A stretch of DNA of 48,166 bases, from IMG/VR virus record IMGVR_UViG_2639762987_000003; one strand, given 5' to 3'. Positions within the stretch are counted from its first letter, which is position 1. Each line of letters begins with the position of its first letter. The stretch comes from a virus. Its lineage: Duplodnaviria; Heunggongvirae; Uroviricota; Caudoviricetes. The position numbers and the translations under genes are program-made. The notes beneath the pieces were generated by a model. That model was not told the origin of the DNA. It did not search any database and saw nothing but the letters and a program-made list of their open reading frames with translations. This document shows, one piece after another, positions 20,011 to 48,166 of this stretch.

Positions 20011-20054
20011 GTTTCCATATCTGGTCACTTTCCAACCAGACACCCACAATCATA

Positions 20055-20069
20055 ACCACGTTACGTGGT
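20055..20069. promoter_or_regulatory. ACCAC-N5-GTGGT operator site upstream of the repA leader
   Basis: accacgttacgtggt; same palindrome family as the repressor operators. Confidence 0.55.
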
Positions 20070-24475: not shown

Positions 24476-24505
24476 GCTTAATTCCTTGGATTAACAAATC
24501 GCAAA

Positions 24506-27602: not shown

Positions 27603-27604
27603 AA

Positions 27605-31599: not shown

Positions 31600-31604
31600 T
31601 AGTA

Positions 31605-32035: not shown

Positions 32036-32044
32036 TTTTTCACC

Positions 32045-32566: not shown

Positions 32567-32582
32567 AGCAACCTCCTATTAT

Positions 32583-34046
32583 TTATTCAGAAAACAAGTT
32601 CAGCAGATAATCAGGATTATATTCCATGACGAACTCTATATCTCTGGCAGGTGAGAATGGTGTCATTTTTACATGGAATTTAACAATCCCGTCCATCAAT
32701 GACGTAATCGTGTTTTCAGACTGATCAAAGGTAACAACACCACCTGCAATATCCTGATTACCTGTGAGGCCGTTAAGCCAAATATTCGCACTTGTAACAA
32801 TCGATTCAATTAATCGACGGTTTGCAGGATTGTCTATTTTTGACCAATGCGAAAGAATTAACGTATTACCCACCCAGTTAAACATACGTCGGCAAACACG
32901 AAATGCGTCTTTGGGGTCTGTAGATGTTGGATAAATAGCATTACGGTTTCCCCATGATTTCCAACCATCAAAATTAAGGCTTGTTACAATCCCCTGTCCA
33001 TTTAAGTAGTTTGCCTGGCTAATGTTAAGCCATACTTCACTGCCATCTTTACGTACAGCACCGTCCATCTGTAGTTTTATATTTGACGGAGAACGTGATG
33101 GAATATCGCCATACTGACTATCCAGCAAGCATGTTGCGGCCGCTAAATGGGTTGAGTGATGGTAAATATTGTCACCAAGTTTCACCATCGGCCAGCACAC
33201 TGTCTGGTTAGCGGCCATGTGATTATTGTTCTGTTTCCATTCAGGAACAGCCGAGTAATCACTGATAGTAGATTTATCGGTCGGTGCATCAGTTATGGCT
33301 TCTGCTTTGAACAATTCACTAATCAACGCGGCTTTAGCCGCCATTAGCTGACCAACTTCACTATCAGAACTAAATCCAGGCGCAATCACTTGTCCAGGAA
33401 CCAACTTGAAGCGGGGATACACATCAGACAGTAACTCAAGCCCTGTATTGGCTTTAGTGTTGGAATCCACACCACCGATAATGTCATTTTTAGTTACGGC
33501 ACCGGGATCAAGATGTGTATAACTAACCTTAAGAGTAGCGTCTTTTTCGGTAATTTTTCCTCCGCTAATAGCGGTAATGACCGTATAGCCATTATCATCC
33601 AGCGCCAGCACATAATCGGTATCAACCGTTAACCCTGCCGAATCACCATCTGCTTTTTTCACAACAACAGATTTATATAAGACACCATCGTTAGAGAGCG
33701 TACCTTTCCCGCCAGAAAGTTTTACTACCTCATCAGTTACGTCTTTCTTATGCTTTGCTGGATCAAGCACATTGATAAATACAACTGGCGCAACACCATA
33801 TATTCCAAATGCGACTTTAATTACTTCGCTTAAAGTATATTTCTCGAAGTTTGTGCTATATCCTATTTTAGATACGGCCTCTGCGTATGTATAAGCAATG
33901 ATAGGTTTATTTACCGCTGAGGCTGGATCTTCTAACTGATTAACAGGAGCTGTACCAAATGCGACAATCAACCCAGCACTAACTTGTACTGGAGGAGTTA
34001 TAGATGTAGCCAGCTCAGATATATAAATACCGTGGCGATATCCCAT
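32583..34046 (-). CDS. Contractile tail sheath protein
   Basis: 487-aa protein at the head of the sheath-tube-chaperone-tape measure block. Confidence 0.8.
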   Translation of the reverse strand: MGYRHGIYISELATSITPPVQVSAGLIVAFGTAPVNQLEDPASAVNKPIIAYTYAEAVSKIGYSTNFEKYTLSEVIKVAFGIYGVAPVVFINVLDPAKHKKDVTDEVVKLSGGKGTLSNDGVLYKSVVVKKADGDSAGLTVDTDYVLALDDNGYTVITAISGGKITEKDATLKVSYTHLDPGAVTKNDIIGGVDSNTKANTGLELLSDVYPRFKLVPGQVIAPGFSSDSEVGQLMAAKAALISELFKAEAITDAPTDKSTISDYSAVPEWKQNNNHMAANQTVCWPMVKLGDNIYHHSTHLAAATCLLDSQYGDIPSRSPSNIKLQMDGAVRKDGSEVWLNISQANYLNGQGIVTSLNFDGWKSWGNRNAIYPTSTDPKDAFRVCRRMFNWVGNTLILSHWSKIDNPANRRLIESIVTSANIWLNGLTGNQDIAGGVVTFDQSENTITSLMDGIVKFHVKMTPFSPARDIEFVMEYNPDYLLNLFSE

Positions 34047-34336
34047 TATTTAATCTCCATGATAGAAGAAGAAACTCTAGAGTACATTACATACTCGACA
34101 CTGGTTTTATCAGAAAGTCTTTTTTCTGCATCTGCAAAATCACTGGTTGCCACAAACAAACACTTTGCACCAGGAATATGTGATATTAATTTTTCACACT
34201 CTGGAGATAAGCCATTCTTAAATAGTTTATGCTTCAAAATTGAGAGTTGAGGGATTGTTGGTCCTATATATACAAATGTTTGAGCAACATCTTCCTTCTT
34301 TTCTATATCTTCTTTACTACTTTTCTTATTAGCCAT
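34046..34336 (-). CDS. Hypothetical virion/neck protein
   Basis: 96-aa ORF between head and tail modules. Confidence 0.4.
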   Translation of the reverse strand: MANKKSSKEDIEKKEDVAQTFVYIGPTIPQLSILKHKLFKNGLSPECEKLISHIPGAKCLFVATSDFADAEKRLSDKTSVEYVMYSRVSSSIMEIK

Positions 34337-34822
34337 TTAGATAAACTCCTGAGACTGAATATTCTGAGGCTTTAATACTAGCCACGTTCCAGTTGCTTCC
34401 GTTATCCAATATGGATATGGTTGATCATCAAACATTCGCCATCTGATATCACCCTGAAAGAGAAATTTCTCTTCAAGTAAAGGCTTCTCCTGAAAATGAA
34501 ACATCATCCTTTCAAGAAGAGCCATTACCCATTCATACCCAGTATGGTCCTCACAAAAACCACCTAGAAGAAACTTAACCTTAACTTCATCCGTTTCAGG
34601 CTGCATTCCTCCTTCCGTGGGTCTGATAATCACATGAGGAAATTCTGGCGGTTTATCTGGAGATGGTTGTGATTTAGGAGGCAAGTACCCTTTAAATATT
34701 GTTGGAACAAACAATTTAATATCGCTGTCTGTTTCATCATAAGGAGGCCCCTGCACTAATAAATCATGGAAAACCTCATGTTCCAACCGATTTTTTATTG
34801 CATCTATCAAAAGATTAATCAA
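34337..34822 (-). CDS. Putative tail completion/neck protein
   Basis: 161-aa ORF between head and tail modules. Confidence 0.4.
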   Translation of the reverse strand: MINLLIDAIKNRLEHEVFHDLLVQGPPYDETDSDIKLFVPTIFKGYLPPKSQPSPDKPPEFPHVIIRPTEGGMQPETDEVKVKFLLGGFCEDHTGYEWVMALLERMMFHFQEKPLLEEKFLFQGDIRWRMFDDQPYPYWITEATGTWLVLKPQNIQSQEFI

Positions 34823-35163
34823 ATCGGCATTCCTCTGTTAGTATTAACAGTGAGAGTTATTTCCAATACACCAACATTATCTGATACTTCATCAACAATA
34901 TAACTTTTACCGTTGATTTTCATTGACTGGTCTTTGACAGGGAGAACAGGAAAATCTTTTCTTGAAACAAATAATATTATTTGCCCCTGATTTATTCCCT
35001 CTGCAAACTCAGCATATGAGCGTTTATTACGCTCATGAATAAGGTCTGTATCAATAACGGCAAGGATATCCTTGCCGTCTATGTTATATGTATCGGCAAA
35101 CTCTTTTTCATTGAGGAATATTGCAGAAATATCTTGCGCTATAACCTCTTTGAAGGAGTTCAT
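34819..35163 (-). CDS. Putative head-tail connector/head completion protein
   Basis: 114-aa ORF following the capsid block. Confidence 0.4.
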   Translation of the reverse strand: MNSFKEVIAQDISAIFLNEKEFADTYNIDGKDILAVIDTDLIHERNKRSYAEFAEGINQGQIILFVSRKDFPVLPVKDQSMKINGKSYIVDEVSDNVGVLEITLTVNTNRGMPI

Positions 35164-35555
35164 TACTTCTTATTACCTTTTTTTTGCGTTGATTTTTTCG
35201 CATTACTGGTATCAGAAGTAGCTACAGACTCAGATGAATCATCAGCAACCATTTCCTCATTGCCGCCATCATCCTCAAACTCAACCTCGAATACACAGCT
35301 ACCCGCCTCCGTTCGCGTAATCAACCCTGCGTCCACAGCATCATTAACAGCAGATGCGTATCCATGCTCAAAAGCTAACTTAGCAGCATCATAGCCCCCA
35401 GCCGATGCCAAATCACCATCCTCTTCGGTGGCAATAGCATGTCCTGACGCAATCAGTTCGGCAATTCTGGAGTTATCCATTAGCCCATTAAGCAAACGGC
35501 CCGCTTTTAGCGAGCCGTGGCTTATCGTATCAATGTTTTTAATCAGTCTGGCCAT
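35163..35555 (-). CDS. Hypothetical acidic protein downstream of the capsid gene
   Basis: 130-aa ORF with acidic stretch and Lys-rich C-terminus. Confidence 0.4.
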   Translation of the reverse strand: MARLIKNIDTISHGSLKAGRLLNGLMDNSRIAELIASGHAIATEEDGDLASAGGYDAAKLAFEHGYASAVNDAVDAGLITRTEAGSCVFEVEFEDDGGNEEMVADDSSESVATSDTSNAKKSTQKKGNKK

Positions 35556-36599
35556 TTAAACCACCTTAGCCACCAGATAGGCATCAGCCACACCAGGATT
35601 AGGCAGTGGAGATGACTTCATGGCAACATAACGGCCAGCCGGCTTACGAGTTACCCAGGTGTCTGGAACTCGTGGCGACTCAACAATCGTTAGAGTCTTT
35701 TCGGCGTCATCTACAAGCTCTACAGCACCATACAGCATCGTTCCTCGACCAGGAGAGCCAAAGAGGATCTTATCTTCCGGTACTAATGGTTCTGGTTTTC
35801 CTGTTTTATCATTGCGAATAAGTTCGTCGTAACCATAAAAATCGACACCTTCAAGATTGCCATAATGAGTTACGCCTTCTTCTAACTCCTTAGGCTCAAT
35901 ATACCCAAGCTCTTTTCGGCGATTATCAAGATATTTAGTTACTGCTTCATTTTTAACGAAGGCATCAACAACTTTTGCGCCCATTACGGCAACACGAGGT
36001 GTAAAACCTGAAGTTAGTGATACCCGACGTTTCCAGTTGCGAACATTGACCAACGGATCTGATTTTGCTGCACTCCATAAATCATCACCTGTCAGTTCAA
36101 GATATGGTTTATCTCCTTCCTCTTCAGGCCAAAAATAAACTGTGTCATCCACTCCTTCACCAACAATATCAACCTGCCCCGTAAACAAGACTTGTGCACA
36201 CATCCATTCTTCACGGCGGTTAACCATTTCATCAAGCTCAAGCAAATCTTTACCTAATTGCTCGGCGGCTCGTTCTTCTGGCGATTTTGCGTTGTAAATA
36301 TTCTCACCCGGAAGCCTGTTTAAAAGCAGCTCGGCTGTTGTTACCAAATCAGGTGCAACAAGTGGTGGCTCCAGAGTTCTCGTTACAAAGCCGCGTCGCT
36401 CAACGGTTTTTGAGCCAAAACCTTTACCAACAAACGGAGCCATAGTACGGCCCCCGCGAACAAAATCCAGATCAACTTTCTTTGTATTAAAGGTCTGAAC
36501 ACCAGGAAAAAAGGTACGAAGAAGAAAACGACGAGCCTTGAAATTCTGAATAACAGGCTCAAGCATTGTACGTCGTTCAAAAATATCAATATTCGGCAT
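35556..36599 (-). CDS. Major capsid protein, lambda gpE-like
   Basis: 347-aa protein with lambda E-like pattern (N-terminal LRTFFP; C-terminal PDTWVTRKPAGR resembling lambda PKNWVTTGDPARE). Confidence 0.8.
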   Translation of the reverse strand: MPNIDIFERRTMLEPVIQNFKARRFLLRTFFPGVQTFNTKKVDLDFVRGGRTMAPFVGKGFGSKTVERRGFVTRTLEPPLVAPDLVTTAELLLNRLPGENIYNAKSPEERAAEQLGKDLLELDEMVNRREEWMCAQVLFTGQVDIVGEGVDDTVYFWPEEEGDKPYLELTGDDLWSAAKSDPLVNVRNWKRRVSLTSGFTPRVAVMGAKVVDAFVKNEAVTKYLDNRRKELGYIEPKELEEGVTHYGNLEGVDFYGYDELIRNDKTGKPEPLVPEDKILFGSPGRGTMLYGAVELVDDAEKTLTIVESPRVPDTWVTRKPAGRYVAMKSSPLPNPGVADAYLVAKVV

Positions 36600-36619
36600 A
36601 AAAATACGACCTCTTTATA

Positions 36620-37003
36620 TTATGCAGATGGATTTTGTTGTGCGGTATTAAGGAATATCCCAACCTTCCGGCAAGCCAGATATACATCGGCAATCTTTGC
36701 TGATTCAGGAAGGATAACCGCATGTGCATTGAACATTCCGGTCAGCCATGCTGTTCCAACTTGCGCTGAATCAGTCGCATCAATATTGTGTTGAGCGATA
36801 CAATACGGTTCTTTTGCCTCCCCTTCACCAGAGAGATTTATTGGCGCCACAGTGACAACATTTGTTGTCTGATCAATACTGACAAAAGCAAGTAACTCAC
36901 CCCGTTTTACTTTACCGCTGGCAAGTTTAATACTTGTTGGAATTGCTGGCATACCACCAGAAATAATCAGATTATCTGGTTCAAATGAAAAAGACTCTCG
37001 CAT
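36620..37003 (-). CDS. Head decoration protein, gpD-like
   Basis: 127-aa protein between protease/scaffold and capsid genes. Confidence 0.55.
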   Translation of the reverse strand: MRESFSFEPDNLIISGGMPAIPTSIKLASGKVKRGELLAFVSIDQTTNVVTVAPINLSGEGEAKEPYCIAQHNIDATDSAQVGTAWLTGMFNAHAVILPESAKIADVYLACRKVGIFLNTAQQNPSA

Positions 37004-37012
37004 AAACTCACC

Positions 37013-38101
37013 TTAATTTTTATCGCGGTTTTTAAATACTGACCCAATAACATTTTTTACTGCTTCAGCCTGTTTGTTGCCGTTGTTTTCTGGTTGATTA
37101 ACATCAACTGAATCATTCACCTCACTTGCGTCTTCTTGCCGTTGATTAAGAAAGTTTTTGTTACGCGCTCGCTCTGCATTCATAATTTCCAAAGCAAGTT
37201 CAGCCGCAGAAACTCCTGTTTTGAATTTTGCATTCTTAACCAGGTCGTCATGACCAGGAATCACGCTATTCTCGATTGTTTCAATGCGCTCGCGTTCTGA
37301 TTTAACGCCCTCGTCTTTACCAGCATTAAAAACCTGATTGTATAATTCTGGATATTTATTTTTTAATTCATCAAGAGTCACAATATCGTCCTCATTTTGT
37401 TCATTTGATTCAGTAGATAACTCATTTTTATTTTGCGGCAACTTTGCGAGTGAATCAGGTAATTTTGAAAACCTTGATGCTTCAAAAGTTATTCCATTAA
37501 GCGAAAGCATCCCTTCCTTTATAGAAGCGGATAAGCGTATTGGTTTTTCAACTTCGTCAGCAAATCCAAGCTCTACAGCCTCTTCTGCATTTAGCCATGT
37601 TTCCTGATCCATTAGTTCAATTAATTTATCCTCAGAAAGCCCTGTTTTCTCCTTATATGCAGATAAAATACTATTGCGTATCTTATCCATCATCTCAGCA
37701 ATATCACGCAATTCATCCGCATCGCCAGCAGCAAATGTCCACGGATTATGGATCATCATCATAGCATTAGATGGGATAATAATTTTATCACCCGCCATTG
37801 CAATAATAGTTGCAGCCGATGCAGCAATCCCGTCGATATAAACCGTAATATTCGCCTTATGACGCTTTAATGATGAAAGAATAGCTTGAGCAGTAAAAAC
37901 AGAACCACCATAACTATTAATTTTTACGTTGATAGTATTTGATGAAATATCCTTTAATTTATTAACTATGTCAGAAGAAGAAACCTCATCAAATTCACCA
38001 ATATACCCGTAAATTAAAAGTTCAGCCGGAGAGTCATCTTCACCCGTGCTATTTTTTATTTCCCACCAATTAGGCATCATCAGTCTCCATATTTTGTTCA
38101 T
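37013..38101 (-). CDS. Prohead protease (ClpP-like) with C-terminal scaffold-like region, lambda gpC-like
   Basis: ClpP-like core (INSYGGSVFTAQAI...GIAASAATIIAMAGD) followed by long charged C-terminal part. Confidence 0.75.
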   Translation of the reverse strand: MNKIWRLMMPNWWEIKNSTGEDDSPAELLIYGYIGEFDEVSSSDIVNKLKDISSNTINVKINSYGGSVFTAQAILSSLKRHKANITVYIDGIAASAATIIAMAGDKIIIPSNAMMMIHNPWTFAAGDADELRDIAEMMDKIRNSILSAYKEKTGLSEDKLIELMDQETWLNAEEAVELGFADEVEKPIRLSASIKEGMLSLNGITFEASRFSKLPDSLAKLPQNKNELSTESNEQNEDDIVTLDELKNKYPELYNQVFNAGKDEGVKSERERIETIENSVIPGHDDLVKNAKFKTGVSAAELALEIMNAERARNKNFLNQRQEDASEVNDSVDVNQPENNGNKQAEAVKNVIGSVFKNRDKN

Positions 38102-39644
38102 TTACCTCAGAAACAGGAGGTGTAATAAGCCCCAACTCACGGCGAGCATTCTCTTCTCTGCCACAGATTTGTGCGGTTTCTTCCCAGTTAAGACCTGACA
38201 TTTCAGCCGCTTCTTTTTCACGGGTAGAGAATGTTTCCTCAACACGCAGTTTTGCAGCTTTGACTTCTTTAAGGGGATCTAATTGGCCTTGTGATGGGCC
38301 ATACCATTGAGCGCCACTCCATGCAGCGCGATATTCAGGCCCATAAAAAAAACCAGGGGCAATAACACGACCTTTAGCAACGGCTTCGGCCAACCATTCC
38401 TCATAGATCGGTTGGCAAAATGACTGAACCATCCAGTCACGTCGCATACGGAACATTTTCCAGGCTTCAAGTAATGCGGCCCTGCTTGCGCTATAACTTG
38501 CTGTAAAATGCTTTACCAAGAGTTCGTAAGGGAGTTCTAAAGCAGCCCCAATTTGACGGCATATGGCGACAACAAAACCATCAAATGCCGTATTTGGTCG
38601 CCCGGGATTTGCTGTATCTATCGACTCACCTTCACCCAAACTTACTATGGAGCCATTCCCCATTTCTTGGGTGTTATCATCATGGTTATCGATCTGCTCG
38701 TACTGAGGGATACCCGATTCACCGACTGGCCCATCAGGAGCGTCTGTTTTAATAAAGACAGTAAACATCCCTGACACAACCGCAGCAACCAATTCAGCAT
38801 CGGTGTATCGTCCTAACTGCTTCAATGCTTCAATTACAGGAGCAAGGACAGGAACGCCACGGCGTTGCCCAGGCCTTTCAAAATCCTGCATGACATGCAG
38901 AATATTTCTTCTTCCTGTTTTACTCCCATATGCGGGAATACGTTCCCACTTGCGGGTTACAAAACCAGAAGTCCCGGCTGGGTGATGTTTTGCAACCCAG
39001 TACGCCACAGGCTCGCTAAATTCACCAACCTCTACGCCACCGTAAAGATTTGGTATAAAACGATCCTCTGGATTGCAAACACGATCACCTTCAATTAAAT
39101 AGACGCACAAATCATATATAACACCCTTACGCTTAATAACTGGTAGCGCAGCAAATATATCGCCAGATGTTAACGCAGATATTTGGACCAATGATTGCAA
39201 TTGTCCAAAAGTACACATTCTTGATGCATCACAATTTGGAGAATCAGCCCATAATCTAAACTCACGCTCAACATGCTTTTCCCATGCTCGCGCTTCTTCC
39301 TGCGTCATCCCCAAGAAATCGGCATCAATGTTCGCATTTAGTTTTAAACCGGAACCAACAACGTTTGTCCTGATAGTTTTTATTGCGCCAACCGATAGCG
39401 GGTTTCCCATGAAGAGATCACGAGAACGCTCACGCAATTTATCTATATTTTTAACAATATCATCATCAGGAGAACCAGCTTTACTAAACCAACCCCTTAA
39501 TGATTTTTTATGAGTGCTTGCACCATGACGTGAATATCCAAGGTTATTAATACCTTCAAGTGCTTCTAACCGTTTTCTTGCCAAAGCTCGATTTAATGAC
39601 CTCTGAGGTGAAAACGGCGCAATAACTCGATCAAGAATATTCAT
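38070..39644 (-). CDS. Portal protein, lambda gpB-like
   Basis: 524-aa protein between gpW-like and protease genes. Confidence 0.8.
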   Translation of the reverse strand: MNILDRVIAPFSPQRSLNRALARKRLEALEGINNLGYSRHGASTHKKSLRGWFSKAGSPDDDIVKNIDKLRERSRDLFMGNPLSVGAIKTIRTNVVGSGLKLNANIDADFLGMTQEEARAWEKHVEREFRLWADSPNCDASRMCTFGQLQSLVQISALTSGDIFAALPVIKRKGVIYDLCVYLIEGDRVCNPEDRFIPNLYGGVEVGEFSEPVAYWVAKHHPAGTSGFVTRKWERIPAYGSKTGRRNILHVMQDFERPGQRRGVPVLAPVIEALKQLGRYTDAELVAAVVSGMFTVFIKTDAPDGPVGESGIPQYEQIDNHDDNTQEMGNGSIVSLGEGESIDTANPGRPNTAFDGFVVAICRQIGAALELPYELLVKHFTASYSASRAALLEAWKMFRMRRDWMVQSFCQPIYEEWLAEAVAKGRVIAPGFFYGPEYRAAWSGAQWYGPSQGQLDPLKEVKAAKLRVEETFSTREKEAAEMSGLNWEETAQICGREENARRELGLITPPVSEVNEQNMETDDA

Positions 39645-39880
39645 AAATCTCTTATCACCACTCGTTTAATTCGTGGGCCTCGGCGTATACCTGCTGATAA
39701 TCTTTCTACTTCATTACGCCAGTAATCCATCTCTTTTCTGACTTCTGATAAATCCGCACGAGTTAACTGCCGCGTACCAAATTTATATGACTGACCGCCA
39801 ATAGCAATAGCGCGATATGCTTCCCGCCAGACAGATAACATCTCTCTGGCTTCAGTCAGAGAAAATGCTTCATTGTTCAT
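39641..39880 (-). CDS. Head-tail joining protein, gpW-like
   Basis: 79-aa ORF between terminase large subunit and portal, as in lambda. Confidence 0.5.
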   Translation of the reverse strand: MNNEAFSLTEAREMLSVWREAYRAIAIGGQSYKFGTRQLTRADLSEVRKEMDYWRNEVERLSAGIRRGPRIKRVVIRDL

Positions 39881-39891
39881 TTATATTTCCT

Positions 39892-41748
39892 CTATATGGT
39901 TACGCCTTTACTTATAACTCTACGGCGTCTTCTACGTATACCTGACGAGTTCTGCACATACACATTACCTCGCATTTCCTGTTCGGCAAGCCAGTTAAAA
40001 TTAGGGTTCAGAATTTCCATCGCGGCAGTTGCATAGTTACGGCAATCAAGAGGCTCGTTACGCTCGTAGACTTTTACCCACTTTTCTTTTGTCTGCCCAT
40101 TTTTATATTCAAATATTTTCTTCTCTGATAATAATCCTTTAAAGTATTCGGTATCATATCCTCTGTCAGAATCTAATGGGAAATGCATATAACCAGGACC
40201 AGGATCATGTAGTTTAATTCTTGCCATGATGGTCCCTTTACCATCATCAACCCCCAAATTAAACAACATAGCACCCACACGGTTATTATTACTTGGCTTT
40301 CCTATAAACGGTAAACCTACCCCACCACGCCCCCTGATAGAGTATATTCGCCTTGATTCTCTCGGCTTAGTAAAGCGATATACCTCTGTCGTAAAATGCC
40401 CACCAGAGTCAATACAAACGGAAGAAATCTGTAATTTTCGACCGTCACGGAATGACCAGCTACGGAGTAAGTATTCATCAAGTTGTTTCCAGACAACATC
40501 TTGTGCGGGATCACCTGGGAATATTTTATATTCTATCCCCCATGACTCCTTACCTTTTCCCCAACCGACCAATTCACAAACTAAATACGTGTCCTGTACG
40601 TCAACACCAGCACTTAACAATAAAACATCATCTGGTAAAAACTCTTCAAACCTTATTCTGCGTTGCAACAAGTATTCAGGATCGATATCGTCTTTAGCAT
40701 CCTCTTTCCATGGCTCACCCAGCTTAAGGTTAATAAACTCCATTAATCCATTTTTATCGCGGTTTCTGGTTGCTTCCGTAAATTCTTCAACCAGCTCTGA
40801 CAATGCAACCCACGGGGAGTAAAGACTGTTAATATGAAAACCAACAATACCTTTAACTCCAGTATGTTCAGCTATCCATACCCCCTTCGCCAACCAATCA
40901 ACGTCTGGTTTACCAGATCCGCGCATAATCCCGCCGCACTCACAGCACTCATATCTGGCCGTTTCCGGTAACGCCTCACCTGAATCGCTCTTATCCCATC
41001 TGACTTGCGACCATTTCATCACCTGCATGGTGCCACAACATGGGCAAGGAACATGGTAGTAACGCTGATCGGAGAGCTTAAACCACTTGTGGATTTTGCT
41101 CGTTTCCTCCAAAACAGGAGTAGAAACAAAAACTTTCTTACGATTATGAAAGTTGGTAGTACGCTGAATACCTAGTTTTAGTGGGTCGCCCTCCTGCGTC
41201 ACACCGTAACGATCAATCTCATCAGCTAACAGTATTCGAATTGGCCTGGATGCAAGACCTGCTGGGGAATTAGCACCAACAAGTGCTATATATCCACCAG
41301 CGTAATGCTTCATACGTATAGTCGTGCTGGACTTTTTGGCTGCACCGCGCCCCTCTTTCCCTTCATGCAGCTTGTGTTTCAAACCAGGGGAATATTTGAA
41401 CGTCGGATCAATACGCTCCTTTGAAAAAGCCTCAGCCGCCTCTACCGTTGGATAAATCATCAACTGAGGAGATGGCTCCTGATCTGCAAAGTAACCCATA
41501 ACATTTAGCTGTAATTCGGATTTACCAATTTGCGAGCTACATTGCATCACTACTGTTTCTGTATCAGCGTCACCAATAACATCCATTGGTTCACGCAAAT
41601 ATGGCACTCGGCTTGTACGCCACGGCCCTGGCTCTGGAGACGTTCCCGGCGCTACATGACGATACTTATCAGCCCATTCGGAAACAGTTAGCCGTGATTT
41701 AGGGCGAAGCGCACGGAAAAAAGCGGTGCTCCATACTGTTTCGCCCAT
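39892..41748 (-). CDS. Terminase large subunit, lambda gpA-like
   Basis: 618-aa protein; N-terminal region resembles the gpA terminase family (TVSEWADKYR...). Confidence 0.85.
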   Translation of the reverse strand: MGETVWSTAFFRALRPKSRLTVSEWADKYRHVAPGTSPEPGPWRTSRVPYLREPMDVIGDADTETVVMQCSSQIGKSELQLNVMGYFADQEPSPQLMIYPTVEAAEAFSKERIDPTFKYSPGLKHKLHEGKEGRGAAKKSSTTIRMKHYAGGYIALVGANSPAGLASRPIRILLADEIDRYGVTQEGDPLKLGIQRTTNFHNRKKVFVSTPVLEETSKIHKWFKLSDQRYYHVPCPCCGTMQVMKWSQVRWDKSDSGEALPETARYECCECGGIMRGSGKPDVDWLAKGVWIAEHTGVKGIVGFHINSLYSPWVALSELVEEFTEATRNRDKNGLMEFINLKLGEPWKEDAKDDIDPEYLLQRRIRFEEFLPDDVLLLSAGVDVQDTYLVCELVGWGKGKESWGIEYKIFPGDPAQDVVWKQLDEYLLRSWSFRDGRKLQISSVCIDSGGHFTTEVYRFTKPRESRRIYSIRGRGGVGLPFIGKPSNNNRVGAMLFNLGVDDGKGTIMARIKLHDPGPGYMHFPLDSDRGYDTEYFKGLLSEKKIFEYKNGQTKEKWVKVYERNEPLDCRNYATAAMEILNPNFNWLAEQEMRGNVYVQNSSGIRRRRRRVISKGVTI

Positions 41749-41753
41749 GAGGT

Positions 41754-42305
41754 TTATTCTTCCTGCTTAATAAATCGGGATTCCTGGAGCGCCTGAAGCG
41801 CAAAATTAATCTCGTCTTCAATAATGCGTTCGATCTCCCTGGCTGTTTTGCCTTCACAACGGGGAGCTGCTCTTGGAGCAATACTAAATAAGCGGCTACG
41901 CAATTCATTAGCTGCCAGAAATGCATCATCCCTGACCGCATCTTTAGCGATGAGAGAGCCTTCCTTTTCTTCAAATTCAAGGCGTTTCAGCTTTGCCTGA
42001 TAAATTTTTTCTGCGGTCTTAGCCTTGTTGAATTGCACCGCAACACCGGAAGTACCACCAGCTAATCCGGCATCATCAGCGGGTAACTCTGGTTGTTCCG
42101 AAGATATCCCATGCCCTCTTTTTCCATTTTCAGCAGATACCCCACGACCAACCTGTCGGCTCGCTTCATAAGCCGCACTGGCTTTATCAAAATCCAGCTT
42201 GCCGCTTTTCAGCACTGGAATGCGACCGGAACGACAGAGCTTCGTAACCATTGCCGGAGAAATACCTTTCCGGCGGGCAAACTCTGACTTACTGACGATG
42301 GCCAT
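41754..42305 (-). CDS. Terminase small subunit, Nu1-like (N-terminal HTH)
   Basis: N-terminal HTH-like segment (SKSEFARRKGISPAMVTKLCRSGRIP); start overlaps the upstream stop (TAATG). Confidence 0.6.
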   Translation of the reverse strand: MAIVSKSEFARRKGISPAMVTKLCRSGRIPVLKSGKLDFDKASAAYEASRQVGRGVSAENGKRGHGISSEQPELPADDAGLAGGTSGVAVQFNKAKTAEKIYQAKLKRLEFEEKEGSLIAKDAVRDDAFLAANELRSRLFSIAPRAAPRCEGKTAREIERIIEDEINFALQALQESRFIKQEE

Positions 42306-42895
42306 TACTTGCAACCATTAGCAAGATACTGAACAAATCCCTCATGCGTTTCATGCGCGTCGTGGTACTGACGATAAACATCCAGCAACAATGCAATTTC
42401 CATATCCGTCGCGGGAATACGTTCTTTATCAATAGCCAGGTACTTAATTTGAACAACAGGGGAAGAATTATCGTCTTCTTCCTGCGGCTGTTCATCGCTT
42501 AACATTTCGTCAAGCTCTGCATCATTAAACCCAAGCAGATCAATATCAAAATCATCATCCATTAACTCTTTGACTTCTTCGGCCAGAAGCTGCATATCCC
42601 AGCCAGCATTTAAGGCCAGCTTGTTATCTGCAATCCTGTACGCCTTCTTCTGTTTTTCAGAAAGGTTACTCAACCGAATCGCCGGAACTTTATCCATTTC
42701 CAGAATTTCGGCTGCTGCAAGCCGCCCATGCCCCGCAATCAGTTCATTCTTTTCATCGATCAGCACAGGATTAGTGAAACCGAACTCACGGATACTGTTC
42801 ACCAACTGTTCAACTTGCTCATCTGAATGAGTCCGTGAATTTTTGGCATATCTGAGCAGCTTACCGACTGGTAAATATTCGATTTTTAGAGCCAT
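42305..42895 (-). CDS. ParB N-terminal (nuclease-like) domain protein
   Basis: 196-aa protein; paralogous by eye to 45562..46185 (shared GHGR and KKAYR(I/L)ADN...LNAGWD segments). Confidence 0.65.
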   Translation of the reverse strand: MALKIEYLPVGKLLRYAKNSRTHSDEQVEQLVNSIREFGFTNPVLIDEKNELIAGHGRLAAAEILEMDKVPAIRLSNLSEKQKKAYRIADNKLALNAGWDMQLLAEEVKELMDDDFDIDLLGFNDAELDEMLSDEQPQEEDDNSSPVVQIKYLAIDKERIPATDMEIALLLDVYRQYHDAHETHEGFVQYLANGCK

Positions 42896-43452
42896 TTTTT
42901 AACCGCCATAACACAACAGGTTAAAGAAAAATGTTTAACTTATTGATACTAAAAGAGAAAAATGACGATCTTTTTACTCATAAAAAATCACACAAACCAG
43001 CATAATTATCTGGTTTTATTAAGTTTTTATAAGTAAAAAGGATCTTCCGATGGTGTTTTGGTTAAAAGATTGGATGTATTTGCATGATTTATAAAGATTT
43101 TTATCAAAACAGCCTTGCATTGGTTAAAGATCTGCGCGTATCTTGATGATCTAAAAGAAAATTCTCTACTTTCTTTTCACCATCACAAGCACAGCAAAAA
43201 ATCACGTTTTCCCAATATTTTTCAATGAGATGGGTAAATTTCTTTTACCGCAACTTTTAACCTAACTTTTTTCACGTTTAGCTAGCCGAACATCGGGGTT
43301 CGAATGACCCGCATCCAACGCTTTTGGCCAGAAGGACCCAATTCTGCCGGACGATGAAACGATGCTCGTGCCCACCCACAGACAGCCAGCGAGCGACGCT
43401 ACAGAACACAGTGAATACACTCTGCATAACAACACCATCAACCACACGATGA
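42896..43452. other. Long intergenic region upstream of the packaging genes; candidate packaging or regulatory site
   Basis: About 555 bp without convincing ORF; AT-rich half contains four GATC sites (about 42969, 43041, 43128, 43152). Confidence 0.3.
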
Positions 43453-44172
43453 TTAACGAGAGAAAGTCTTAGAAAGAATGTCATCAATAGCCTTTGTGAC
43501 TTCATCAGCAAACGCATCCTCACCAGCACGCAGCGCCACGCCATGCCAATCAAGACGCTGCGAATAGTTAGGTTGCTGGATAAACGTAAGGATCAACGTA
43601 GGACGCCGCCCAACGCGCTGCCAGACGCCTGGTTGAAGCGGGTTACTTGTACCAGGTCGAACAACAAAAAACTCCGTAGGCTTGCCCTGACGGCGATTTT
43701 GATGCGCATCTCGCTGAACTCTTAGGCCAGATAAGACCTGCTGTAATTGCCCCCGCGAAATATTCCCGTATTTGTCCAGCTTTGCACCGGGACCAGGAGC
43801 AAGCTGCCAGCCGTTAGGCAAATATCCACCAGCCCTTAGCGCCCCTTCTGAGCGTTTGTACTGTCGTTGTCCACCTTCGATTTGCGGAGTCAACGTTACA
43901 GGGGCTGGCGTTCCTCCCCATTCACGAGCATACACAATGGCTGTAGGATCACTCTTCTTTGCGGCCAAAACGTAAGTAGAGTTCTGAATCCACGGCGTGG
44001 GCCTGTCAAATACCCGATTAATTTCATTCTTAATCGCAGCCTGAGAAGCCTTTGCCGTTCTGGTTGCCGCAAGCGCCATTGCGAACGGCAATTCGCGTTC
44101 TTCAAGGCGCTGGAGTTGTCGTTGAATATCCTGAGAAGAAAAATCCATCTTTATCTCAATTCTGTCAGCCAC
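43453..44172 (-). CDS. Hypothetical protein
   Basis: 239-aa ORF between the methyltransferase fusion and the intergenic region. Confidence 0.45.
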   Translation of the reverse strand: MADRIEIKMDFSSQDIQRQLQRLEERELPFAMALAATRTAKASQAAIKNEINRVFDRPTPWIQNSTYVLAAKKSDPTAIVYAREWGGTPAPVTLTPQIEGGQRQYKRSEGALRAGGYLPNGWQLAPGPGAKLDKYGNISRGQLQQVLSGLRVQRDAHQNRRQGKPTEFFVVRPGTSNPLQPGVWQRVGRRPTLILTFIQQPNYSQRLDWHGVALRAGEDAFADEVTKAIDDILSKTFSR

Positions 44173-44188
44173 CAGCGCCTCCTACACA

Positions 44189-45568
44189 CTACTTAATCAA
44201 CGGCCGGAAAGCCGCCAGCACATCATCAGATCGTCCGATTGTTGAACCACCAGGCAACGGCAACTCAAACTCAAAACGAACAGCTTTCTCCAGACTCGCC
44301 CAACTAAGGGAATCATCGTTAATGACGTGCAAATACCAGCTCTTACAGTTGAATATTGACCGCTTAATCCTGAAACCATGTACACGACACAACTGCTTCA
44401 CTTCATCATCAGAGTGAAACTTCTGGTAAAACCAGTGCCCCTTCCGGTACAACGCGGTAAAACCGTTATGATCAATAAAATAAAGCCGGCTTTTGGAACT
44501 CGCCGCTTGTGTTTGTTTCAGGACGGTTTCCAGCTCTCCACGGCTACGGCCAGAAAAGAATATTGACCCACCAGCTTTACACAAGCCTTTCAGAACCGTC
44601 AGAACGGACCATTCAGCCTCGACACTATCGACCGAGTTCAAAACGCTATCGCAAATCACGTAGTCGTAACGCCCTCGCGTTTTTAAGTCGTCCACCAGCG
44701 TATCAATCATCCGGTTTGTTGCGGTCCTATCCAGAGTGTTTCCAGCGCCCTTACGGCGGAAAAGCTCGAGATCATGCAGGTTATATCCCTTTGCCCTGAG
44801 CATTCGCGCGTAGTCTCCCTGCCCCGAACCAAAATCAATTCCTCTTGGCGTCTTGGCAATGATCGGGAGGATCAACGACTCATACAGGTTTGATTTCAGG
44901 CTGCCACCATTACGCAACCGCATAAGCTGCGCATACGTCTGGATGTATGTTGTTTTCTCCAGATGAGAATACTCAAATACACCATAAGTTTTATTCAGAT
45001 AACTTTGGTATTTTTCCTTCTCAACATCAGGGATCACAAACACCGTTAGCGGTGTGCGCGTCATCTTCGCTGCTAATGCATACTGAGCACAGTGAATAAC
45101 CTCGCCAGACTGAGTAGCAACACAACCACCCCACGGACCATACTTGATAACCAGTTCCGCTATGTTCTTTCGAACATATGCCATTTTCGCGCGCATATTG
45201 CCTGAGATCTGGCTTGCCGATACCTGAACAAAACCATGCTTATCTTCCAGACCGGACACCCTGCAACGCTCATCTCCGCTATCAAAATCCGTTCCGTTAT
45301 GCAGTTGGTTAAACCGTACTTCGTCGTATACCGTCGTTTCACAGGGCAACACATACACCGCAGCACGCGTTATTCCCAACTTACGTAGCGCCTTCGTCCT
45401 TTGGTGTCCCGCCACCAGCAAATCGCCGCGCACTATCAATGGCTTCACAAGCCCCAGCTCCCTGACGCTTTCCGCCAGCCTCGCAAGATCATCCTCACCG
45501 ATAAAACGCGGGTTATATTCCGCGCCGCGTAGGTGCGTTATGTCGTAATTGAGGTGAAGCATCAGCAC
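44189..45568 (-). CDS. ParB-like N-terminal domain fused to class I SAM-dependent methyltransferase
   Basis: N-terminal ParB-like segment (LVAGHQR) and methyltransferase motif I (IDFGSGQGDYARML). Confidence 0.65.
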   Translation of the reverse strand: MLMLHLNYDITHLRGAEYNPRFIGEDDLARLAESVRELGLVKPLIVRGDLLVAGHQRTKALRKLGITRAAVYVLPCETTVYDEVRFNQLHNGTDFDSGDERCRVSGLEDKHGFVQVSASQISGNMRAKMAYVRKNIAELVIKYGPWGGCVATQSGEVIHCAQYALAAKMTRTPLTVFVIPDVEKEKYQSYLNKTYGVFEYSHLEKTTYIQTYAQLMRLRNGGSLKSNLYESLILPIIAKTPRGIDFGSGQGDYARMLRAKGYNLHDLELFRRKGAGNTLDRTATNRMIDTLVDDLKTRGRYDYVICDSVLNSVDSVEAEWSVLTVLKGLCKAGGSIFFSGRSRGELETVLKQTQAASSKSRLYFIDHNGFTALYRKGHWFYQKFHSDDEVKQLCRVHGFRIKRSIFNCKSWYLHVINDDSLSWASLEKAVRFEFELPLPGGSTIGRSDDVLAAFRPLIK

Positions 45569-46185
45569 ACCTCCCCAGCCAGCAATGCGGATACAAATCC
45601 GATATAGCTGCCATTATCATCAACATAACGAGACACCGCGCAGTCAAAACGATCCGCTTCCTCATCCGTTGCCGGGATTTTATGACCTCCAAATGACAGG
45701 TACTGAACTTTTACGCCTGATTTGGCCTCATCCTTCTCAAATGGGATATCCATACCCTCTGTGTCATCGTAGACCGCCGCACTCAATAAGTTATCCAGTT
45801 CGCGCTGAGTAAAACCAATTGAGTCCAGAGCAAAATCATCGGCCGCAAGATCTGCAAGCTCCGCGCTTAACAACTCTTCATCCCAACCAGCATTCAGCGG
45901 AATACGGTTGTCGGCCAGACGATATGCCTTCTTCTGATTCTCCGTTAGCCCTTCCAGAACAATGCAGGGAACCTCATCCATCCCCAACTGAGTGGCCGCA
46001 GCAATTCGACCATGACCAGCAATTACAACGTTGTTCTCGTCTATCAGGATCGGATTAGTCCATCCGTACTCCTGTATGCTGGCAACAATCTGATCTACCT
46101 GCTCCACGGAGTGTGTGCGAGCGTTCTTTTCATAACCAATCAACACAGAAAGTGGTAAAGAAACCACATTAAGATGTTTTGTCAT
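45562..46185 (-). CDS. ParB N-terminal (nuclease-like) domain protein, paralogue of 42305..42895
   Basis: 207-aa protein with the same conserved segments as 42305..42895. Confidence 0.65.
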   Translation of the reverse strand: MTKHLNVVSLPLSVLIGYEKNARTHSVEQVDQIVASIQEYGWTNPILIDENNVVIAGHGRIAAATQLGMDEVPCIVLEGLTENQKKAYRLADNRIPLNAGWDEELLSAELADLAADDFALDSIGFTQRELDNLLSAAVYDDTEGMDIPFEKDEAKSGVKVQYLSFGGHKIPATDEEADRFDCAVSRYVDDNGSYIGFVSALLAGEVC

Positions 46186-46419
46186 GCCGTTTATCCGCTA
46201 AAATCCCCTCGCTTGTGCAAGCAAGTGGGCCTCGGTTTGTATCCACGGCACCCTGTGGGTATGAATGACTGTCGTCAGGTCGCAACTGACGGCGGTCGCC
46301 CACCTTCCAGTAATAAAAAAGCCACCAGCATTAACTCCACAGCGAGCTGGAGTTAATGAGGCAGCTTTGGTTTGCGCATTATCGCAGCCCCTGATAAGCA
46401 CAAGAGCTGCTGTAATGCG

Positions 46420-46749
46420 TTACGCAGGGATCAAACGGATGCGGCCGTTATTTACCTCAATACGAGAGTATTCCGGCTTACCATCAACGATTCCGGTAAT
46501 GACAAGTTCGCCATCAGACGAGCATTCTTCTTTGTCGTCTTCAAGTACCGCGCCTTCTGGCAAATCAACACAGGCAAAAACAGGGCAGCCTGGATAACGA
46601 TCATCTTCCATCGCAATCAACATCGATTCACCGAACCACTCTGTGGTAGCACGACCATCAGCCGCCTGATAGTGAATCAAATACTGGTTTTCGCCATTTG
46701 CATACTGAGCACGGGCTTGTACTTCTCCCCACTCTTCACTGATACGCAT
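46420..46749 (-). CDS. Hypothetical protein
   Basis: 109-aa ORF between a terminator and the ParB-like gene. Confidence 0.45.
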   Translation of the reverse strand: MRISEEWGEVQARAQYANGENQYLIHYQAADGRATTEWFGESMLIAMEDDRYPGCPVFACVDLPEGAVLEDDKEECSSDGELVITGIVDGKPEYSRIEVNNGRIRLIPA

Positions 46750-46840
46750 TGTTACCAGTTGGGATCATTCAAACTTAAACGGAACAGACTCTGCACCAAT
46801 GGCAATCGGTTTATCTTCTTTCTTTTCCATAACATCACCT

Positions 46841-46870
46841 GAAAATAAAAGCCCCGCGACACCGCGAGGC
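46841..46870 (-). terminator. Rho-independent terminator after the cassette-C proximal genes
   Basis: On the minus strand, 8-bp GC stem (one G-U) with 4-nt loop followed by UUUUAUUUU. Confidence 0.6.
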
Positions 46871-46878
46871 TGTAAGAG

Positions 46879-47043
46879 TTACTTTCGATAGAAATCAAGG
46901 CGCATTTGCTCCCGCTTAAGCCGAAAAGCTCTCTGCGCCACTAAGATGCGCCACAGGACACCAGCAATAACCACCAGCGAGATACAAAAACACACGGCCA
47001 CAATCATCAGAAAAATGCCAAGACCATTCATGAAACTATCCAT
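46879..47043 (-). CDS. Candidate 52-aa small membrane protein (below the ORF-track cutoff)
   Basis: Hand-translated MDSFMNGLGIFLMIVAVCFCISLVVIAGVLWRILVAQRAFRLKREQMRLDFYRK; GGAGG 13 nt upstream; overlaps 47028..47240 by 16 nt. Confidence 0.3.
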   Translation of the reverse strand: MDSFMNGLGIFLMIVAVCFCISLVVIAGVLWRILVAQRAFRLKREQMRLDFYRK

Positions 47044-47240
47044 TTTTCAATGAATACCTCCAGTAATATCAAGAGATACGCCGTACCCAGCGCGGTTCCT
47101 ACCGATATAGCTAAGACAAACCTCAAAGATAACGAGGTGTCTTTCGCTTTTCTCCAGACGTAAGCGCCAGCCAGAAATACCAACAAATCTCTTATTGGAA
47201 GCGGAAACCAGAACAAATCACTCGGCATAAGCACGATCAT
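47028..47240 (-). CDS. Small membrane protein
   Basis: 70-aa hydrophobic ORF with start overlapping the upstream stop. Confidence 0.4.
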   Translation of the reverse strand: MIVLMPSDLFWFPLPIRDLLVFLAGAYVWRKAKDTSLSLRFVLAISVGTALGTAYLLILLEVFIEKWIVS

Positions 47241-47517
47241 CTTCCGCTGCTGATTTACACGCCGCAGTTACTGATATATTGATAACCGGTGCGCTAATCG
47301 TGATGGACGACTCTGTCGGTTGACGCGATATAACTGAACGATGGTTATCAATGAAGTCCACAATCTCATTCAGGCATTCTTTAGCTGCCTCATCGTGACT
47401 TTTTCCGTATGCTTCACGGAGGACTTTCATCCTCATCATTGCTCCGTCACATATAGTCGAAAGCGCGTAAAGCACATCACTAACCGCCATTTCTTTTTTG
47501 GTGCTTGTCGAAGGCAT
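47218..47517 (-). CDS. Hypothetical protein
   Basis: 99-aa ORF in the cassette-C proximal operon. Confidence 0.45.
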   Translation of the reverse strand: MPSTSTKKEMAVSDVLYALSTICDGAMMRMKVLREAYGKSHDEAAKECLNEIVDFIDNHRSVISRQPTESSITISAPVINISVTAACKSAAEDDRAYAE

Positions 47518-47591
47518 CCCATGTTCTCCTTTGTCTGGATGTAAAAAAGCCCCGGCAATTGCCGAGGCTCGTTGTTCGTTATCGTTACGGT

Positions 47592-47792
47592 TTAATGCTC
47601 GCGTCGTCCGGCGACAACTTCGGATTTGTATTTCAGGTCGCCCAGCAAGAATTGCAGTTTAAGCATCTTTGCCGCCGTGTAGTTCCCTGATTCCACAACC
47701 TCTTTCATGAGGTCATAAACGGCCGCAACATCATCAGCCAGGAACTCTTTGCGTTGCTGCTCAGTCGCACGTTTGAAGGAAATACGCATCAC
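47592..47792 (-). CDS. Hypothetical small protein
   Basis: 66-aa ORF, start overlaps the upstream stop. Confidence 0.4.
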   Translation of the reverse strand: MMRISFKRATEQQRKEFLADDVAAVYDLMKEVVESGNYTAAKMLKLQFLLGDLKYKSEVVAGRREH

Positions 47793-48058
47793 TCATCATC
47801 TCCTGCCGCACATACAACCTCACAAAAAAAATCAGCAGAATGTTTCTCCTTGAACGAATGACGCTCAAAACCGCACTCAATATCAGGCGCAAAAACATCC
47901 ACCACATACGGTCTTTCAGAATGTTTGTTTTCCCAACGATAAACCGTAGTGACGTTGAAATGTTTTAACGCTTCACGGAACTCAACGCTGCCCGTCAGGT
48001 TTTTTGAGGTCAGGTATTGCAGGAGGTTTTTTACTACTTCACGGTCTTGTACTTTCAT
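47789..48058 (-). CDS. Hypothetical protein, first gene behind promoter cassette C
   Basis: Start set at the ATG 8 nt after the cassette's GGAG (MKVQDREVV...); the longer track ORF translates the leader. Confidence 0.5.
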   Translation of the reverse strand: MKVQDREVVKNLLQYLTSKNLTGSVEFREALKHFNVTTVYRWENKHSERPYVVDVFAPDIECGFERHSFKEKHSADFFCEVVCAAGDDE

Positions 48059-48166
48059 CAGATTTCTCCGGTTTAACCAGGGCGGGTATCGCTCGGTTTC
48101 GGGTATAACCATAGGAAATTTTTTCCCACCTGTAAAGCACTTTTTATATAAATATATAATTATATA
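48055..48166 (-). promoter_or_regulatory. Promoter-leader cassette copy C (continues across the circular join into positions 1-34)
   Basis: Same -35 TTTACA (48136-48131) / -10 TATGGT (48113-48108) / leader / GGAG as copies A and B; one mismatch in the AT-rich end; TATAATTATA at 48155-48164. Confidence 0.6.

Follow-up and report, generated by a model that had tools for sequence, protein, structure and literature searches.

The window analyzed here, a stretch of 48,166 nucleotides from a virus of the Caudoviricetes (IMG/VR record IMGVR_UViG_2639762987_000003), carries two genes for ParB-like proteins (here ParB-like A and ParB-like B) and a gene in which a ParB-like domain is fused to an S-adenosylmethionine (SAM)-dependent methyltransferase, all close upstream of the terminase genes. 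We propose that the two ParB-like proteins and the fusion form a late-expressed, ParB-assisted DNA-modification module, a reading to which we give about an even chance of being correct. The observations behind it are the domain content of the three proteins, the conservation of a ParB-like gene and the fusion gene as a cassette, the co-variation of the ParB-like tails with their partner enzymes, purifying selection, and the position of the genes relative to cos and the terminase genes.

Organization of the ParB-terminase region

All of the genes in this region are on the minus strand (Table 1) and are transcribed in the order ParB-like B, fusion, a 239-aa open reading frame (ORF), a 557-nt gap, ParB-like A, TerS, TerL. 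The four ORFs described between the terminase genes and position 46,185 in an earlier account made from the letters alone (the sequence-only reading) are all present where that account placed them. The stop codon of ParB-like B and the ATG of the fusion overlap by 1 nt (TGATG), with a GGAGG 7 nt upstream. The fusion is 457 aa long from this ATG at 45562 and 459 aa from a GTG at 45568, and the overlap and the GGAGG make the ATG the likelier start. As that reading also stated, the group lies directly upstream of the terminase genes: the ParB-like A stop codon overlaps the TerS start codon (TAATG), such that ParB-like A is translationally coupled to TerS, and a TerL of the lambda gpA type follows.

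Substitution rates were estimated by comparing the window with relatives at 57-90% protein identity, and because dS is saturated for most comparisons, it can be stated only that dN is much lower than dS. Across the four genes dN is 0.06-0.37 at saturated synonymous sites, with a dN/dS of 0.06 for ParB-like B and ~0.06-0.09 for the 239-aa ORF. Low dN at saturated dS indicates that both paralogues, the fusion and the 239-aa gene are kept by selection.

The ParB-like proteins

ParB-like A and ParB-like B are clear paralogues, as had been proposed, with 48% identity across their full lengths (E 7e-62), and both are full-length members of phrog_620 (E ~1e-75). In each, a helical linker connects a ParB/Srx nucleoside triphosphate (NTP)-binding module to a short C-terminal tail, which is of the type associated with Methyltransf_23 partners. 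The ParB_N model (PF02195) scores 33.7 bits with ParB-like A, above the cut-off of 26.3, and falls just below it with ParB-like B (25.4) and the fusion (24.3); ParB PHROGs match all three proteins with E values from 1e-14 to 1e-75, and hhalign aligns a paralogue with the N-terminal domain of the fusion at a probability of 98%. Membership of the ParB/Srx superfamily is further indicated by the box I arginine and by the arginine of the P-motif (GxxRxxA), which reads GHGRLAA, GHGRIAA (ParB-like B) and GHQRTKA across the three ParB-fold proteins. Residues R21 and R58 are near-invariant among the ParB-like proteins, and within the fusion family R21 and R57 never vary. The word nuclease in the name of the ParB-like nuclease domain is historical.

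None of the three proteins is a canonical partition protein. All miss the TIGR00180 cut-off of 58.45, with scores of 40.1, 30.3 and 16.4 bits, and the ParB/Noc matches in NCBIfam are solely below threshold. No helix-turn-helix (HTH) is matched by Pfam in the ParB-like proteins, the ParA-binding motif ([LIF]G[KR]G[LIF], or LG(K/R)GL) is not found in them, and there is no adjacent parA gene to complete a ParABS system.

The second ParB-like gene after cos, ParB-like A, is present in close relatives only, and Vibrio phage X29 has the same order of cos, ParB-like gene, TerS and gpA-type TerL, with its own repeats before the ParB-like gene. The tails of the ParB-like A orthologues at two loci (L085/L086) cluster with those of ParB-like proteins adjacent to fusions; the tail of the X29 protein does not. 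Judged by its C-terminal tail, ParB-like A probably belongs with the fusion and not with TerS. ParB-like A was also considered as a helper of the stand-alone MT-A70 methyltransferase encoded elsewhere in the window, and this is unsupported, as the relative L018 has ParB-like A with no MT-A70 gene within 5.4 kb upstream.

A conserved cassette in which tails match partners

The fusion family comprises more than 700 clusters with the same architecture, from Enterobacteria to Bradyrhizobium, Bacteroides and Brochothrix, but few cultured phages have it (7 of 50,697 records). Among 56 IMG/VR loci with enough upstream sequence, a ParB-like gene lies directly before the fusion gene in 45, and the two genes overlap in 36; the same pairing is seen in Bradyrhizobium and in metagenomic contigs. 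A stand-alone ParB-like gene adjacent to or overlapping an enzyme gene thus recurs across lineages, which is the arrangement of a ParB-assisted modification pair. The large terminase gene is 0.7-3.5 kb downstream of the fusion and belongs to at least four families (gpA, TerL_ATPase/TerL_nuclease, Terminase_6 and Terminase_3), and the cassette also occurs in chromosomally integrated prophages and in non-plasmid phages. One clade of fusions (L067-L075, from IMG/VR 3300045988 contigs, with 33% identity) has no upstream ParB-like gene. In this clade a gene for an SNF2-family helicase lies ~1.4 kb downstream, where the terminase gene is expected. We also note that in the cassette-bearing prophage of Bradyrhizobium barranii (L005, 11054..17196) an Amidoligase_2 gene and genes for two GGACT/AIG2-type proteins are near another methyltransferase-like gene, a set reminiscent of predicted peptide-tagging or base-modification systems.

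The 80 nearest relatives of the ParB module in IMG/VR place it among DNA-modifying enzymes. The ParB domain and helical linker (the first ~140 residues of both paralogues) share 50-62% identity with the N-terminal half of phage proteins annotated as DNA modification methylases, and the long relatives are without exception (40/40) fusions of ParB_N to N6_N4_Mtase with DPPY-type motifs. Short relatives are followed, in 36 cases, by a mostly overlapping ORF that encodes Mom (12), a TET-associated glycosyltransferase (TAGT; 9), an N6_N4 methyltransferase (3), a C5 methyltransferase (1), a GNAT protein (3), an ABC/AAA ATPase (4) or TerS (3). For example, in the siphovirus Escherichia phage vB_EcoS-673R7 (L081, 3989..5705) close to the terminase genes and upstream of them, TAGT is encoded by a gene that overlaps a closely related stand-alone ParB-like gene, and a glycosylated base may be present in the DNA of this phage. 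For at least 39 of 56 ParB-module genes, a large terminase gene follows 0.3-3.2 kb downstream, so this location is usual for the gene class and not special to the window.

The tails of 65 stand-alone ParB-like proteins and the proteins encoded by their partner genes were clustered separately, and the two sets of clusters agree with an adjusted Rand index of 0.87, a value reached in none of 2000 permutations. A single tail type (YLxF...IPxTDxE...GF) is common to all 31 fusion partners and to the ParB-like A orthologues. The pattern is that of a domain swap, with no gradual divergence.

The ParB-methyltransferase fusion

The gene between the paralogues encodes, as the sequence-only reading recognized, a ParB-like domain joined to a SAM-dependent methyltransferase, with ParB_N at residues 9-70 and Methyltransf_23 at residues 233-400. 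The protein matches phrog_5475 over its full length (E 1.6e-265), and its AlphaFold2 model has a predicted local distance difference test score (pLDDT) of 92 and a predicted template modeling score (pTM) of 0.88. In the N-terminal domain, for which the best PDB profile matches are Spo0J, ParB and Noc, the YNPR sequence and the P-motif arginine are retained, with His and Gln in place of the Glu-Arg of GERR. The middle domain (residues ~110-193) has a predicted secondary structure of E-H-E-E-H-E-H, in the same order and with the same spacing as the N-terminal domain; alignment of the N-terminal domain or of deeper ParB profiles to it by hhalign is co-linear over ~82 columns and non-significant (P 0.02, probability below 3%). 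It is possible that the middle domain is a second, degenerate ParB-like domain.

The catalytic domain is a class I SAM methyltransferase, with a PF13489 score of 32.6 bits against a cut-off of 27, Foldseek matches at a probability of 1.00 to many SAM methyltransferases, and a UbiG profile match (E 2e-6). DFGxGxGD, E268, D307/N311/S312/D314 and VAGHQR are invariant across the family; motif I in the window is DFGSGQGD, and a conserved CDSVLNSVD segment occupies the position that DPPY has in DNA methyltransferases. The PCQ and ENV motifs of C5 enzymes were not found in the fusion, which has no match to PF00145; Methyltransf_23 is the sole Pfam methyltransferase model that it matches. PADLOC places the proteins of the region in no known defense system, its only matches being the ParB part of a methyltransferase model and the MT-A70 protein.

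The predicted cos site and the 239-aa gene

The 557-nt gap contains a predicted cosN. Yersinia phage records start or stop at window positions 43297/43298 or 43309/43310, and the linear record of Vibrio phage X29, in which the flanks are homologous, has ends that map to 43299/43298. The quasi-palindrome GGGTCATTCGAACCC at this site is the best-conserved block of an otherwise divergent intergenic alignment. Between it and ParB-like A, five of the 12 window copies of TTTAACC fall within 365 nt (Poisson 5e-8), and there are parallel arrays in relatives, composed of TTGTTAACC in the relative L018 and of five copies of GTTAACAC in X29. The GpA domains of TerL, the convergence of the termini of four related phages and the clustering of the repeats are those of lambda-type cos packaging, and we infer that 43298..43309 and the repeats are the cosN and cosB-like array for the gpA-type terminase. 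With cosN inside the interval, virion DNA would have ParB-like B, the fusion and the 239-aa gene at one chromosome end, and ParB-like A, TerS and TerL at the opposite end.

The 239-aa ORF is a real gene, to judge from its GTG start, the ribosome-binding site TAGGAGG and its low dN/dS. Its product folds like HK97 gp10, with long helices at the termini, and the family has no Pfam model and no named homologue. Family members are found in Pseudomonas phages (F10, MD8, JBD68 and Lodos), in Sinorhizobium and in metagenomes, always in the final position ahead of cos in gpA-terminase phages, and the gene belongs to the cos/terminase neighborhood, outside the ParB/methyltransferase cassette. It lies far from the other neck genes. 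An endolysin function was considered for it, since it follows holins in some phages, and was rejected in view of the gp10 fold and the presence of a GH108 endolysin gene elsewhere in the window.

The interval 42305-46185 had been presented as a single cluster, and although the genes were correctly located, they are divided by cos and the 239-aa gene is tied to cos and the terminase. What lies here is three juxtaposed modules: the cassette, the 239-aa gene, and a packaging unit of cos, ParB-like A, TerS and TerL. Neither the cos site nor the phage-plasmid nature of the element, described next, was recognized in the sequence-only reading.

The element is a phage-plasmid

The window (1..48166) represents a complete circular genome, and its ends overlap by 33 nt. 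Near-identical DNA is present in 72 of 5,426 complete E. coli genomes, where plasmids of 47-51 kb account for 78 of 79 matches, and in Escherichia phage vB_EcoM-613R2 and Yersinia phages vB_YpM_39/41/44. Because near-identical DNA is found almost solely on E. coli plasmids and in phages, the element is a phage-plasmid and not an integrated prophage. There is no integrase among the window genes.

Evaluation of the proposed function

Several observations weigh against the DNA-modification module proposed here. By both fold and profile the catalytic domain of the fusion is nearest to enzymes that methylate small molecules (O- or N-methyltransferases) or tRNA, with matches to UbiG, Trm9-Trm112, METTL6, GNMT and natural-product methyltransferases, and there is no DNA methyltransferase among its 50 Foldseek hits. 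The (D/N/S)PP(Y/F/W) motif is present in none of 28 members of the fusion family, compared with 40/40 of the ParB-N6_N4 fusions, and the PADLOC methyltransferase models match the fusion in its ParB part only, not in the catalytic domain. The fusion methyltransferase, as read from these comparisons, is a UbiG/Trm9-like class I enzyme without a recognizable DNA-methyltransferase motif, and DNA is suggested as its substrate through guilt by association. Moreover, the reading gives no reason for two helpers, the L067-L075 clade indicates that a helper is not obligatory, and the tail/partner statistic is inflated by relatedness, as gene pairs are co-inherited. These same catalytic-domain matches, and the missing DPPY-type motif, would suit an enzyme with a target other than DNA, such as tRNA or another RNA, a nucleotide bound by the ParB/Srx domain, a protein or a small molecule. 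The ParB-fold domains would then be NTP-binding or kinase-like, as in sulfiredoxin and SerK, or nicking nucleases or NTPases directed, as in Osa, at the DNA of the host or of a competitor, and the cassette would have a host-takeover or anti-competitor function in the late operon. There is precedent for such activities: a ParB-CTPase fold survey describes ATP binding by this fold in certain SAM-methyltransferase fusions and enzymatic roles for it in Srx and SerK (PMC12704722), and nicking or DNase activity is reported for ParB domains in a methylase fusion and in Osa (PMC5512222). However, the great majority of the nearest ParB-module relatives are associated with DNA-base enzymes, the ParB-domain profile best matches the DNA-clamp proteins ParB, Spo0J and Noc, and the cassette gives no hint of an RNA or small-molecule pathway. 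We regard a non-DNA target, or a different activity of the ParB fold, as improbable, if still deserving of serious attention.

Two further explanations concern the ParB-like proteins rather than the enzyme. They, and ParB-like A especially, could be packaging accessories that bind the repeats on the cosN side and help TerS and TerL to assemble on cos or to cut it, in the way that HK97-type terminases are aided by HNH proteins. Only position suggests such a role: ParB-like A directly follows cos as the first gene and is coupled to TerS, the TTTAACC array separates it from cosN, X29 has the same gene order with its own repeats, and many ParB-module genes (39/56) are upstream of a terminase gene. 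A specific terminase partnership is nonetheless difficult to reconcile with a cassette that precedes at least four unrelated terminase families, and TerS is the next gene in only 3 of 36 stand-alone relatives. Unlike the X29 protein, ParB-like A has the tail of Methyltransf_23 partners, the ParB-like proteins show no DNA-binding HTH, and the HTH-like N-terminal region of TerS could itself read the repeats. We therefore think a packaging role quite unlikely, and packaging-site recognition by the cassette, one of two functions suggested in the sequence-only reading, is not borne out. A role as centromere-binding partition proteins of a plasmid prophage is suggested by the ~48-kb plasmids in 72 E. 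coli genomes, the ParB_N fold and the GenBank label 'chromosome (plasmid) partitioning protein ParB', and yet has very little to recommend it. The TIGR00180 scores (~40, 30 and 16 bits) are far from the cut-off of 58.45, there is no HTH and no LG(K/R)GL, GHGR or GHQR replaces GERR, the ParB-like genes are in the late packaging operon, and the cassette is also found in integrated prophages and non-plasmid phages. The element has its own RepA and ParA, the latter ~30 kb away on the other strand and with its own 82-aa downstream ORF, which makes a partition role of the ParB-like proteins unlikely.

Under the favored reading of a ParB-assisted DNA-modification module, the enzyme would be the 457-aa fusion, with its ParB/Srx NTP-binding domain, its middle domain and a catalytically intact class I SAM methyltransferase. 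ParB-like B, encoded just upstream, would be a non-catalytic helper in which the ParB module either contacts the ParB domain of the enzyme or binds NTP and DNA, and the short C-terminal tail is a partner-specific adaptor. ParB-like A would serve the same enzyme by virtue of its tail, though it is encoded across cos beside TerS. The complex would load on replicated phage DNA late in infection, prior to packaging, and methylate it, and this methylation could complement that of the MT-A70 adenine methyltransferase and shield virion DNA from host defenses. Self-modification against restriction, the other function that had been suggested, is the reading best supported by the comparative evidence, in that the ParB module is fused or coupled to DNA-modifying enzymes in most relatives, although the enzyme to which it is fused here is no recognizable DNA methyltransferase. 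A near-identical plasmid has no annotated restriction enzyme. Likewise, of the two orphan methyltransferases that had been claimed, a DNA methyltransferase is evident only for the MT-A70 gene, since the fusion family has no DNA-methyltransferase motif. The MT-A70 protein scores 80.9 bits with PF05063 against a cut-off of 23.9, matches PADLOC MTase_II (E 1e-67) and has DPPW at residue 13, identifying it as a canonical N6-adenine methyltransferase; counted across the junction of the circular window, its gene lies ~2 kb upstream of ParB-like B.

A more specific scenario, which we consider doubtful, is that the ParB-Methyltransf_23 enzyme is loaded or activated by its ParB-like helpers under NTP gating and installs a methylation other than N6-mA, N4-mC or 5-mC. 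A UbiG-like domain would suit O-methylation or an unusual N-methylation of a base or of the backbone, and if true this would represent a new family of phage DNA-modifying enzymes together with a general adaptor system of ParB module and exchangeable tail for recruiting diverse DNA modifiers. More broadly, phage ParB-fold proteins usually carry the annotation of a partition protein or a nuclease, and here they appear as swappable helpers of DNA-modifying enzymes in which the tail matches the enzyme, a pattern seen in hundreds of metagenomic phages. If the Methyltransf_23 fusion does act on DNA, it would belong to a methyltransferase family that is invisible to motif-based (REBASE style) methylome annotation. 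The E. coli/Yersinia phage-plasmid would then provide a genetically tractable system in which the activation of DNA modifiers by ParB-like proteins could be tested.

Other features of the window

In addition to the features listed in Table 1, the window encodes an XRE repressor, a GH108 endolysin, a lambda-like head module and a P2-like contractile tail. Three virtually identical ~110-nt repeats have, on the minus strand, the look of a promoter (TTTACA ... TATGGT) and 5' untranslated region (UTR) followed by GGAGA and ATG, each at the head of a minus-strand operon. The copy at the right end of the window is 1.85 kb upstream of ParB-like B and heads a transcription unit that runs toward the ParB cluster. 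A terminator-like hairpin is upstream of both the 109-aa ORF and ParB-like B. The 109-aa ORF seems to be a shortened form of a 237-aa gene in Yersinia phage vB_YpM_44, and in plasmid NZ_CP020518.1 its counterpart has an internal stop and is given as a pseudogene in the annotation. The arrangement of isrK, the C4 antisense RNA and the antirepressor gene resembles the P1-type immI immunity region. ARAGORN names the tRNA with the CAT anticodon tRNA-Met, and RefSeq names its homologue tRNA-Ile, which implies a lysidine-modified CAT anticodon.

Table 1. Coordinates of the ParB-terminase region and of other features in the window
Feature	Coordinates	Strand	Details
MT-A70 N6-adenine DNA methyltransferase, stand-alone	38..625	-	PF05063, DPPW, PADLOC MTase_II
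tRNA, CAT anticodon	934..1009	-	Between lysis genes and MT-A70
~110-nt repeats (three), promoter/5'UTR-like	6800..6918, 16765..16884, 48035..48166	-	Virtually identical
ParA ATPase	10758..11426	+	~30 kb from ParB-like genes, opposite strand
82-aa ORF	11470..11718	+	Downstream of ParA
ryfA	11942..12238	-	Rfam, above gathering score
isrK	12610..12682	+	Rfam, above gathering score
C4 antisense RNA	12707..12795	+	Rfam, above gathering score
ORF6N/Rha antirepressor gene	13037..14179		isrK and C4 directly upstream
Gp49/HigB-like toxin	17231..17584	-	
RepA, IncFII-type	19041..20018	-	
TerL, large terminase subunit, lambda gpA type	39892..41748	-	GpA_ATPase E 7e-76, GpA_nuclease E 1e-84
TerS, small terminase subunit	41754..42305	-	phrog_57 E 1e-41; start ATG at 42305
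ParB-like A, 196 aa	42305..42895	-	phrog_620 E 5e-75; ParB_N 33.7 bits
Non-coding gap, 557 nt	42896..43452		Holds cos
Putative cosB-like array	42898..43262		TTTAACC/GGTTAAA motifs, between cosN and ParB-like A
Putative cosN	43298..43309		12-nt core GGTCATTCGAAC (minus strand) of conserved quasi-palindrome GGGTCATTCGAACCC
239-aa ORF	43453..44172	-	
ParB_N + middle domain + Methyltransf_23 fusion	44189..45562 (or ..45568)	-	Pfam; phrog_5475
ParB-like B, 207 aa	45562..46185	-	phrog_620 E 1e-74; ParB_N 25.4 bits
109-aa ORF	46420..46749	-	phrog_1935
Terminator-like GC-rich hairpin and T-run	46850..46871	-	9-bp stem, 7 GC pairs, then TTTATTTT

Comparison with known systems

Literature searches found no functional study of ParB-like genes beside a terminase or of the Yersinia vB_YpM_39/41/44 phages, and no study of the cassette or of the methylomes of its phages. 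A Serratia phage paper merely notes ParB-like homologues, and a paper on a single-stranded DNA methyltransferase mentions ParB only as a neighbor in the leading region. Canonical ParB (TIGR00180) and Noc share with the window proteins the N-terminal ParB/Srx fold with its box I and P-motif arginines. Unlike them, the window proteins are below the family cut-off, are without the HTH, the C-terminal dimerization domain and the ParA-binding peptide, have GHGR or GHQR for GERR, and are not encoded next to parA.

A closer relationship is seen with the fusions of ParB_N to N6_N4_Mtase (phrog_498; PADLOC MTase_II PDLC03229), of which the Bce_0392 ParB-methylase of Bacillus cereus is an example (PMC5512222). 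In addition to the similarity of ParB module and linker noted above (50-62% identity to the window paralogues), these have the P-motif AGHGR and, as their usual site, the position just upstream of the terminase, both as in the window. They differ in carrying a methyltransferase domain where the window paralogues have a ~50-aa tail instead, and in having DPPY throughout (40/40), whereas the Methyltransf_23 domain of the window fusion is without it. Pairs of a stand-alone ParB-like gene with a phage Mu Mom or a TAGT gene have the same ParB module and the same overlapping order of helper upstream and enzyme downstream, often before the terminase, but with another enzyme and another C-terminal tail on the helper.

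A functional parallel is provided by 5mYOX176 and ParB176, in which a phage stand-alone ParB, with an NTP-binding and a C-terminal domain and no DNA-binding domain, is required for the neighboring DNA T-dioxygenase to act on double-stranded DNA (PMC13229309). As is proposed for the window, a stand-alone ParB-like protein is encoded beside a DNA-modifying enzyme, and its cognate-pair specificity parallels the tail/partner co-variation described here; the partner in the window differs in being a SAM methyltransferase with its own ParB domain, for which dependence on ParB, substrate and chemistry are putative. Nicking or NTPase activities of some ParB-fold domains are described in earlier work (PMC5512222). 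The ParB-CTPase fold survey (PMC12704722 / bioRxiv 10.1101/2025.10.10.680097) lists the ParB_N + Methyltransf_23 (PF13489) architecture as enriched in phages and prophages, gives its function as 'predicted DNA methyltransferase ... perhaps anti-defense' with no functional test, and reports ATP binding in some bacterial SAM-methyltransferase fusions. The passages of it consulted here are silent on a seemingly obligatory upstream ParB-like partner, on partner-specific tails, on the position next to the terminase, and on a catalytic domain that is not of the DNA-methyltransferase type. The architecture is thus already catalogued and its placement is ordinary; to this we add the conserved pairing of helper and enzyme, the partner-specific tails and the non-canonical catalytic domain, together with a cos site that falls within the interval, an identity for the 239-aa gene and the phage-plasmid context.

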